NCBI RefSeq assembly: GCF_003334355.1
Contig: NZ_QOWP01000006.1
Length of the DNA stretch: 64,000 nucleotides
Direction: 5' to 3' (one strand)
DNA from: Escherichia coli
GTDB taxonomy: Bacteria > Pseudomonadota > Gammaproteobacteria > Enterobacterales > Enterobacteriaceae
A program made the translations under genes and the position numbers. The notes below the pieces were generated by a model. The model was given only the letters and a program-made list of their open reading frames with translations, ran no database searches and was not told the DNA's origin. Positions 3,392-5,724 of the stretch are shown here, one piece after another (position 1 is the first letter of the stretch; every line of letters starts with the position of its first letter).

Positions 3392-5724
3392 GCCGTTACA
3401 CGGCGGCAGACGGCGCGGAGTGGCAGTACCGCTATGATGAGCGCGGCCTGCTCAGCAACATCACCGACACTGCCGGACAGACGTGGACACAGCTGTGCGA
3501 TGAACGCGGCCTGCCGGTGAGTCTGGTATCGCCACAGGGCGAAGAGACCCGGCTGGCGTACACCGCTCAGGGGCTGCTGTCGGGAATATTCCGCCAGGAT
3601 GAACGGCGTCTGGGCATAGAGTACGACCACCACAACCGGCCGGAAACACTCACCGACGTGATGGGCCGTGAACACCACACCGAATACAGTGGTCACGACC
3701 TGCCGGTGAAGATGCGCGGCCCCGGCGGTCAGTCAGTGCGGTTGCAGTGGCAGCAGCACCATAAACTGAGCGGCATTGAACGTGCTGGAACCGGCGCAGA
3801 AGGATTCCGCTATGACCGCCACGGCAACCTGCTGGCGTACACGGACGGTAACGGCGTTGTCTGGACAATGGAATACGGCCCGTTCGATTTGCCGGTGGCG
3901 CGAACGGACGGTGAAGGCCACCGCTGGCAGTACCGCTACGATAAAGACACGCTGCAACTGACAGAAGTCATTAACCCGCAGGGCGAATCATACCTTTATG
4001 TTCTGGATAACTGTGGCCGGGTGACGGAAGAGCATGACTGGGGCGGCGTGGTCTGGCGTTACCGCTATGACGCCGATGGCCTGTGTACCGCCAGGGTTAA
4101 CGGCCTGGAGGAAACTATCCTCTACAGCCGGGACGCCGCAGGCCGCCTGGCAGAAATCATCACGCCGGAAGGCAAAACGCAGTATGCGTATGACAAATCC
4201 GGCAGGCTGACGGGTATCTTCAGCCCGGACGGTACATCACAGCGCACCGGCTATGATGAACGCGGGCGGGTGAATGTCACCACTCAGGGCCGACGGGCCA
4301 TTGAATACCACTACCCCGATGAACACACCGTCATCCGCTGTATCCTGCCACCGGAAGATGAACGCGACAGACACCCCGGTGAATCCCTGCTGAAAACCAC
4401 GTACCGCTACAACGCCGCCGGAGAACTGACGGAGGTTATCCTGCCGGGGGATGAGACGCTGACGTTCAGCCGTGATGAGGCAGGACGTGAAGTGCTCCGG
4501 CACAGTAACCGGGGTTTTGCCTGTGAACAGGGCTGGAATGCAGCCGGTCAGCCTGTCAGTCAGCGCGCCGGTTTTTTCCCGGAAGAAGCCACATGGGGCG
4601 GGCTGGTTCCGTCACTGGCGCGGGAGTACCGTTACGACAGCGCGGGTAATGTGTCAGGCGTCACCAGCCGGGAAGATTACGGACGGGAAACCCGGCGGGA
4701 ATACCGGCTGGACCGGAACGGCCAGGTCACGGCGGTGACAGCCTCAGGCACCGGGCTGGGCTATGGCGAAGGCGACGAGACTTATGGCTATGACAGCTGC
4801 GGCTACCTGAAGGCGCAGTCTGCGGGCAGGCACCGGATAAGTGAAGAGACTGACCAGTATGCCGGAGGCCACCGGCTGAAACAGGCCGGAAACATGCAGT
4901 ATGACTATGACGCCGCAGGCCGGATGGTCAGCCGGACAAAACACCGTGACGGCTACCGCCCGGAAACAGAGCGGTTCCGGTGGGACAGCCGGGACCAGCT
5001 GACCGGGTATTGCAGCGCACAGGGTGAGCAGTGGGAATACCGCCACGACGCCAGCGGCAGACGAACGGAAAAACGCTGCGACCGGAAGAAAATCCGTTTT
5101 ACGTACCTGTGGGACGGCGACAGTATTGGGGAAATCCGGGAATACCGCGATGATAAACTGTACAGCGTACGGCACCTGGTGTTTAACAGCTTTGAGCTGA
5201 TAAGCCAGCAGTTCAGCCGGGTACGACAGCCGCACCCGTCCGTGGCCCCGCAGTGGGTGACGCGGACGAATCATGCGGTGAACGACCTGACGGGCCGTCC
5301 GCTGATGCTCTTTAACAGTGAAGGTAAAACCGTCTGGCGACCGGGACAGACCAGCCTGTGGGGGCTGGCACTCAGCCTGCCCGCAGACACCGGCTACCCG
5401 GACCCGCGCGGGGAACTGGACCCGGAAGCCGACCCCGGCCTGCTGTATGCGGGGCAGTGGCGGGATGCGGAATCGGGGCTGTGCTATAACCGGTTCCGGT
5501 ATTACGAGCCGGAGAGCGGGATGTACCTGGTGAGTGATCCACTGGGGTTGCAGGGAGGGGAGCAGACTTACCGGTATGTGCCGAATCCTTTAAGATGGAT
5601 AGATCCCTTAGGATTAAATAAAGGAGCTTCATTATCTAAAATGATGAATAGCTCCAGTGATCTCATGGGGTTGAGAAGGCAGCCCCAGAACTTCTGGCGG
5701 CTATATCGCGGAAAAGACATTTAA
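3352..5724 (+). CDS. rhs: Rhs YD-repeat core and C-terminal tip (continuation of the same rhs gene in a different frame)
   Basis: 790-aa ORF rich in YD/RYxYD repeats; ends with core-terminating motif ..YRYVPNPLRWIDPLGL followed by only ~35 aa and three consecutive stops (TAA TAA TAG). Confidence 0.8.
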   Translation: MEKFEYNAAHDQLSRYTAADGAEWQYRYDERGLLSNITDTAGQTWTQLCDERGLPVSLVSPQGEETRLAYTAQGLLSGIFRQDERRLGIEYDHHNRPETLTDVMGREHHTEYSGHDLPVKMRGPGGQSVRLQWQQHHKLSGIERAGTGAEGFRYDRHGNLLAYTDGNGVVWTMEYGPFDLPVARTDGEGHRWQYRYDKDTLQLTEVINPQGESYLYVLDNCGRVTEEHDWGGVVWRYRYDADGLCTARVNGLEETILYSRDAAGRLAEIITPEGKTQYAYDKSGRLTGIFSPDGTSQRTGYDERGRVNVTTQGRRAIEYHYPDEHTVIRCILPPEDERDRHPGESLLKTTYRYNAAGELTEVILPGDETLTFSRDEAGREVLRHSNRGFACEQGWNAAGQPVSQRAGFFPEEATWGGLVPSLAREYRYDSAGNVSGVTSREDYGRETRREYRLDRNGQVTAVTASGTGLGYGEGDETYGYDSCGYLKAQSAGRHRISEETDQYAGGHRLKQAGNMQYDYDAAGRMVSRTKHRDGYRPETERFRWDSRDQLTGYCSAQGEQWEYRHDASGRRTEKRCDRKKIRFTYLWDGDSIGEIREYRDDKLYSVRHLVFNSFELISQQFSRVRQPHPSVAPQWVTRTNHAVNDLTGRPLMLFNSEGKTVWRPGQTSLWGLALSLPADTGYPDPRGELDPEADPGLLYAGQWRDAESGLCYNRFRYYEPESGMYLVSDPLGLQGGEQTYRYVPNPLRWIDPLGLNKGASLSKMMNSSSDLMGLRRQPQNFWRLYRGKDI

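Follow-up and report, generated by a model that had tools for sequence, protein, structure and literature searches.

We examined the C-terminal tip of an rhs gene in a 64,000-nt stretch of Escherichia coli DNA (RefSeq assembly GCF_003334355.1, contig NZ_QOWP01000006.1; hereafter the window). The window carries the vgrG–eagR–rhs island of E. coli that lies between cusS and nfrB: part of a type VI secretion system (T6SS) vgrG, a DcrB-related gene, an rhs gene split into two open reading frames (ORFs), a series of small downstream frames and a transposase (Table 1). The original prediction had drawn attention to the unusually short, low-GC end of the second rhs ORF and read it as either a very small or truncated toxin domain or a remnant of cassette displacement. 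Our analysis, which rests on sequence comparison, instead indicates with a probability of roughly 0.93 that the tip is a normal 133-residue toxin domain, belonging to what was once a 1603-aa PAAR–Rhs T6SS effector, that has been cut by the loss of a single G.

The end of the rhs gene is as first described. Translation of positions 3352–5730 gives ...YRYVPNPLRWIDPLGL followed by NKGASLSKMMNSSSDLMGLRRQPQNFWRLYRGKDI and three stops; 35 codons follow NPLRWIDPLGL, which ends at 5616, before TAA TAA TAG at 5722–5730. The sharp fall in GC content from about 5590 was also borne out. In 200-nt windows, GC content is 0.625 at 5401–5600, 0.495 at 5501–5700, 0.415 at 5601–5800 and 0.37 at 5701–5900, so that a core of 0.62–0.66 gives way to values of 0.37 and lower past a break at around 5590. 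In E. coli S51, which carries an additional orphan rhs core fragment, homology between the main rhs core and that fragment stops exactly at the position equivalent to window 5590, and 5590 is therefore the real junction of core and tip. The NCBIfam model TIGR03696 (Rhs_assc_core) ends at residue 755 of the 790-aa ORF, exactly at DPLGL. In the native frame, the bases of the three stops belong to CAT TTA ATA ATA GCA (His-Leu-Ile-Ile-Ala). Because DNA of 37% GC has many stops in any wrong frame, the triple stop calls for no particular explanation.

A six-frame view of the region revealed where the rest of the domain lies. From 5661, the neighbouring frame stays open up to a stop at 6015–6017 and reads ..SHGVEKAAPELLAAISRKRHLIIALPGSDEFRMLEHFGAEASV..; ..DLMG in the core frame and VEKAAPELL.. 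in the neighbouring frame are joined by adding exactly one G to the run at 5667–5670. The joined frames reproduce the C terminus of the intact 1603-aa Rhs protein of S51 except for one Ala/Glu substitution. A search of 5.8 billion proteins with the reconstructed 133-aa tip yielded dozens of homologues of 55–72% identity that align as one block across the residue 18/19 junction, with the consensus ..(D/E)LMGVE(P/K/R)AS.EL... When 1.84 billion cluster representatives were searched exhaustively, 321 matched at E ≤ 1e-3, including 65 at E ≤ 1e-30, and nearly all of the 321 are a single stretch covering query residues ~10–133 at the carrier's very C terminus. The invariant motifs LEEFLHGTQ and AETHVKDFMIRH both fall within the remainder of the toxin, downstream of the G run. 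The ORF at 5757–6017 (86 aa, annotated 'hypothetical', WP_000889443.1) is the stretch of the neighbouring frame after its first ATG and corresponds to toxin residues 48–133; the proposal that it be tested as the immunity gene thus does not stand, and the candidate for that role is the next ORF, at 6017–6304.

Intact alleles of the gene exist in other E. coli strains. S51 has ATGGGGGTTGAG and an unbroken 4812-nt coding sequence (CDS), WP_224065153.1 (1603 aa), which ends ..DPLGLNKGASLSKMMNSSSDLMGVEKAAPELLEAISRKRHLIIALPGSDEFRMLEHFG...LKDKGL*, and equivalent intact CDSs are present in IGC_RcoliRes_1.1 and SC407 (WP_237897921.1 and WP_250854717.1). The S51 locus has the same order as the window (vgrG, DcrB-related gene, rhs, 95-aa ORF) at ~98% nucleotide identity. 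Relative to S51, the window is without one G at 5667–5670, without 67 bp at ~3351 and without a downstream orphan Rhs–Tox-MPTase4 module. The tail is thus the intact N terminus of a toxin, the rest of which follows downstream once a simple indel is allowed for, as S51 and the homologues show; the original prediction had named this very outcome as counting against it. Its term 'truncated toxin domain' holds in the literal sense, with the cause being a 1-nt indel and the rest of the domain still present in the neighbouring frame.

The remainder of the rhs gene is consistent with a PAAR–Rhs effector. NCBIfam models for PAAR, YD-repeat, RHS_core and Rhs_assc_core match across the two ORF pieces, with the YD/RHS shell and core represented by TIGR01643, NF041261 and TIGR03696, and the N-terminal PAAR domain (NF033420) at residues 263–305 of the first piece, downstream of the vgrG and Eag-type genes. 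A prePAAR-like AARLGDEIQH is visible in the N-terminal piece. BLAST alignment of the window and S51 over the whole rhs gene showed a 67-nt gap and a 1-nt gap and no other indels. The 67-bp deletion splits rhs into ORFs 1274–3391 and 3352–5724, is independent of the G-run lesion, and is matched across its junction by 442 complete E. coli genomes. Owing to these two deletions, no single uninterrupted frame runs from PAAR to toxin in the window; the prokaryotic genome annotation pipeline (PGAP) already marks the gene 'frameshifted', and it is a pseudogene of the T6SS PAAR–Rhs polymorphic toxin family. These data also bear on whether the 35-residue tail might be a genuine miniature toxin or peptide effector, a reading suggested by its position where Rhs toxins start and by the stops that end it. 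Of its 35 residues, 17 are a wrong-frame reading of conserved toxin codons, the homologues and intact E. coli alleles run on for 133 residues, and the upstream deletion blocks synthesis of the carrier; a very small toxin can be almost wholly discounted.

To determine how widespread the lesion is, we looked for the repaired 81-mer spanning it in 5,426 complete genomes of E. coli; the tip is present in 558 of them. An 80-mer with four G, 100% identical to that of the window, was present in 535 of the 558, whereas the S51-type 81-mer with five G was matched over its full length at 100% in 15 genomes (19 in the band of at least 99% identity). The effector is thus dead in the window strain, as in ~96% of tip-bearing E. 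coli genomes. One genome, FCI51 (L003, 6021–6081), was the only one found to have five G on a four-G-type background (GCG versus GAG at the nearby Ala/Glu codon). Reversion, an assembly error in the homopolymer or survival of an ancestral intermediate could each account for this allele; the FCI51 rhs gene is in any case truncated at the N terminus. Several five-G genomes (A17, DS26-1 and FCI51) are broken elsewhere, and the four-G genomes L001 and L002 have other, larger deletions in the rhs core. These alleles point to a pseudogene haplotype of long standing, inherited vertically and still decaying.

Some sequencing technologies often miscount homopolymers, and the five G of FCI51 could be such an error in the opposite direction. 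That the four-G run of the window is itself a sequencing or assembly artefact nevertheless has next to no probability, given that 535 complete genomes, produced in many laboratories on many platforms, have exactly this 80-mer. The five-G alleles are also unlikely to be assembly errors, because 15 genomes match the S51 81-mer exactly and S51 and two other strains have complete 4812-nt CDSs. The prevalence of the four-G allele among carriers could alternatively reflect recoding, in which a programmed −1 ribosomal shift or transcriptional slippage allows some full-length toxin to be made; a P-site Gly-tRNA on GGG (5668–5670) could re-pair perfectly on GGG (5667–5669) and restore the native ..LMGVEK... 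Four consecutive G do not form a canonical X XXY YYZ slippery heptamer (no search was made for a stimulatory structure), PGAP calls the gene frameshifted, and the 67-bp deletion in the window and 442 genomes, like the larger deletions in L001 and L002, leaves an upstream part that cannot deliver the toxin. We therefore regard recoding as extremely unlikely.

The fate of the gene is therefore as follows. Loss of one G from GGGGG, 18 codons into the tip, has shifted the reading frame, such that translation adds 17 unrelated residues and ends at the first of three wrong-frame stops in AT-rich DNA. The other 114 toxin codons persist untranslated in the neighbouring frame, some of them annotated by gene-finding programs as an 86-aa 'hypothetical protein', and the upstream 67-bp deletion independently frameshifts the same gene. 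In strains with a live allele, the T6SS would deliver the effector on VgrG, Rhs autoproteolysis at DPLGL would then release the tip, and the 95-aa protein would neutralize it in kin, as established for Rhs effectors. The released tip, with its zincin-like, Tox-MPTase4-like predicted fold, may be a metal-dependent hydrolase, its predicted active site formed by the helix that carries the invariant Glu-Glu-x-x-His and by a Glu/His helix downstream of it.

Table 1 Features of the rhs island in the window
Position	Strand	Feature	Evidence
1–765	+	T6SS vgrG, 3′ part; start lies upstream of the window	NCBIfam TIGR03361 VI_Rhs_Vgr, E 7e-67; collinear with S51 VgrG CDS
793–1254	+	DcrB-related (DUF1795, EagR-type) accessory gene	Gapless collinearity with S51 WP_001160804.1 'DcrB-related protein' (RefSeq)
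1274–6017	+	PAAR–Rhs effector pseudogene	NCBIfam models on two ORF pieces; two frameshifting deletions relative to S51
3343–3351	+	Junction of 67-bp deletion between imperfect 9-nt direct repeats GCCGGACGG / GCCGGGCGG	Window–S51 alignment
5591–5616	+	Start of low-GC tip DNA; encodes PxxxxDPxGL boundary motif (NPLRWIDPLGL)	End of S51 core homology; GC profile
5617–5670	+	18 native toxin-domain codons (NKGASLSKMMNSSSDLMG)	Identical in S51 and in proteins of L009 and L011; homologues align up to ..LMG
5667–5670	+	GGGG run, site of 1-nt deletion (intact alleles GGGGG)	Four G in window, L001 and L002, five in L003, L004 and L008–L011; counts in 558 genomes
5671–5730	+	17 out-of-frame codons (LRRQPQNFWRLYRGKDI) and TAA TAA TAG	Native frame of the same bases reads VEKAAPELLAAISRKRHLIIA
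5671–6017	+	Remainder of toxin domain, residues 20–133, and TGA stop, in neighbouring frame	Unbroken in S51 and >100 homologues
6017–6304	+	95-aa candidate immunity gene; ATG overlaps toxin TGA by one base	WP_001021473.1 directly after intact rhs in S51, IGC_RcoliRes_1.1 and SC407
6294–6587	+	Open frame without start codon; first part (..LRNFYLRNNATLYEVYHEV, to ~6400) a Tox-MPTase4-type tip relic	Stop-to-stop scan; S51 orphan tip ..LRNIYLRKNATLYEVYHEVIHAKQ (PF15640)
6595–7067	+	Two overlapping open frames (6595–6792, 6732–7067), resembling one frameshifted small AT-rich gene of ~155 aa	Open-frame scan
7269–8405	+	ISAs1-family (ISEc1, H-repeat) transposase; closes the island, upstream of nfrB	NCBIfam NF033564, E 7e-122; RefSeq annotation

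Displaced tips are present further downstream, in the window as a Tox-MPTase4-like relic at 6294–6400 and in S51 as an Rhs–Tox-MPTase4 orphan. The frame at 6294–6400, directly after the candidate immunity ORF, contains ..QYPSFNNELRNFYLRNNATLYEVYHEV.., which closely resembles the FDYGLRNIYLRKNATLYEVYHEVIHAKQ core of the S51 orphan tip, and is therefore a relic of an older metallopeptidase-type tip, cut inside HExxH. These relics, and the standing of the locus as a textbook case of tip displacement (Jackson et al. 2009, PMC2935791), would favour the 35-residue tail being a stump left when a new C-terminal toxin/immunity cassette displaced or deleted the old tip. The tip at 5591–6017, however, is complete and collinear with the intact S51 allele except for one base; it is joined to a full core and followed by its own small ORF, with the relics lying downstream, outside 5617–5724. 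We consider a displacement stump at this site very unlikely, the S51 alignment having refuted it for 5617–5724. Nor is the window tip a dissociated or orphan tip, as it is joined to the main core that starts at 1274 with a PAAR domain.

The orphan block in S51 (L004, 7497–10629) comprises a Tox-MPTase4-tipped fragment of an rhs core together with a 69-aa ORF and another fragment, and is situated between an AT-rich spacer and ISEc1. This 3.1-kb block is absent from the window (point of absence 7124/7125). The small gene at 6595–7067 may have been frameshifted near the A run at ~6733–6739 and could be a decayed orphan immunity gene.

The 95-aa ORF that immediately follows the toxin is the likely cognate immunity gene and is intact in the window. 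Small ORFs of 87–93 aa lie closely 3′ of the homologous toxins in other organisms; a low-GC variable tip and a distribution typical of toxin domains were both observed, and we infer the immunity function of 6017–6304 from its position only. A homologue search with the 95-aa protein returned almost only E. coli sequences, from which a profile could not be built, and the protein had no meaningful match in family libraries or PDB sequences. MAFFT alignment to the small ORF following a metagenomic (non-E. coli) homologue of the toxin gave 20–28% identity, which is suggestive only. A scan of 5500–7300 found fewer promoter-like sites than in shuffled sequence and no terminator, and thus no evidence of independent expression for the 86-aa ORF or the candidate immunity gene. 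The window strain is probably disarmed yet still protected against the minority of strains that have a live toxin.

The repaired tip had no meaningful match in Pfam, NCBIfam, PADLOC or PDB sequences (for PDB, using both single sequence and profile), and neither it nor any of 35 family members matched the Pfam model PF15640 (Tox-MPTase4) at E ≤ 10. The predicted fold is zincin-like and resembles Tox-MPTase4, with an alpha+beta arrangement in which a beta-sheet is combined with an active-site helix and with a Glu helix. The zinc-binding HExxH motif is not found; the invariant motif is L-E-E-F-L-H-G-T-Q, or EExxH, whereas the defining motifs of Tox-MPTase4 are F[DN], [RK] and HExxH (Zhang et al. 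2012, PMC3482391). Aligning the tip to the S51 PF15640 orphan tip with hhalign placed IIVRSNPSKAAILEEFLHGTQ...LG..SAETHV on IYLRKNATLYEVYHEVIHAKQ...LGRLSREEHV, with E76 of the tip set on the first His of HExxH, at a marginal E of 0.013–0.025; a Tox-MPTase4 profile made from close relatives was too shallow and did not improve the hhalign result. We therefore regard the tip as a toxin that probably works in the manner of a zincin, and leave it outside PF15640, because its HExxH is an invariant EExxH and the Pfam model is unmatched.

The carriers and genomic context of the domain are those of a polymorphic toxin. It is found at the C terminus of PAAR and Rhs proteins, in an orphan toxin/immunity array adjoining Tsi6 and EndoU cassettes, and downstream of a 2508-aa YD-shell protein, and its relatives in AFDB are annotated as S-type pyocin, LysM or DUF4280 proteins. 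We tentatively propose, at somewhat less than even odds, an unnamed and widespread toxin family of 321 clusters at 50% identity, carried by Rhs/PAAR proteins, by proteins of 4300–5900 aa and in orphan cassettes, with a zincin-like, Tox-MPTase4-like fold and an invariant EExxH, for which E. coli populations retain the immunity gene, with the toxin lost in 96%. If correct, EExxH in place of HExxH would imply altered metal coordination or a non-peptidase chemistry. Rhs proteins of other organisms (P0148, P0182, P0185 and P0225) have 140–175 residues between the end of the Rhs core and the toxin domain, which in E. coli begins ~10 residues past DPLGL; these relatives may contain an additional pre-toxin or entry module.

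Three parts of this reading are weaker. A dead allele in 96% of carriers is mildly odd, although it fits an old, vertically inherited lesion and the 67-bp deletion in 442 genomes. A Glu stands where HExxH canonically has its first His, and Pfam and NCBIfam contain no match. Finally, BLASTP detected no similarity between the 95-aa ORF and the small ORF following the metagenomic homologue, and the immunity assignment is positional. We found nothing that contradicts the frameshift itself.

Elsewhere in the island, VgrG models match 25–762 in an NCBIfam scan of the window proteins. The DcrB-related gene has no NCBIfam match and was assigned through its collinearity with the RefSeq-annotated gene; a bioRxiv preprint (10.1101/2024.03.05.583533) deals with the role of EagR. 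Several pig-associated E. coli genomes (H102–H105) have an rhs segment, matching window 3301–3400, under a feature annotated as nrfB or glycosyl transferase, which points to additional rearrangement of the island or to an annotated feature that extends over the relic.

Together, our findings describe an ordinary and widespread E. coli pseudogene, the frameshift of which was already flagged by PGAP and the intact alleles of which are already in RefSeq. They matter chiefly for annotation: WP_000889443.1, which databases hold in hundreds of copies, is part of a toxin and neither a gene of its own nor an immunity gene, and the 86-aa ORF would fail if used experimentally as one. The locus also illustrates the loss of a T6SS weapon with the ORF that probably encodes its immunity kept intact. 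What modest interest remains attaches to the unnamed family of EExxH toxins, which would be better pursued in strains with live alleles such as S51 than in the window.

Known systems close to the tip include the Tox-MPTase4 (PF15640) tips of Rhs proteins, such as Rhs-MPTase4/Cti1 of Shiga toxin-producing E. coli and the S51 orphan. These are of similar size, have an alpha+beta zincin-like fold, are borne on an Rhs/T6SS carrier and are followed by a small immunity gene (a candidate one for the present tip), and their motifs are in register with those of the present tip (I.LR.N......E..H..Q ... LG..S.E.HV). The present tip differs in lacking a match to the PF15640 hidden Markov model, in the invariant Glu that replaces the first His (EExxH) and in a sequence likeness that is marginal. 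For the locus as a whole, the cusS and nfrB flanks, together with vgrG, the DcrB-related gene and ISAs1 in the island, identify it as the 'position 4', clade IV rhs locus of Jackson et al. 2009 (PMC2935791). That locus has the same nfrB/cusS flanks, GC-rich core, AT-rich exchangeable tip and dissociated downstream tips as the window. In the passages searched, that paper treats tip displacement, gives frameshifts for Serratia rhs fragments only and makes no mention of a frameshift in the present tip. It also notes that rhs genes and fragments often have frameshifts and premature stops, and the window gene is materially of the same kind as these frameshifted and degraded rhs genes.

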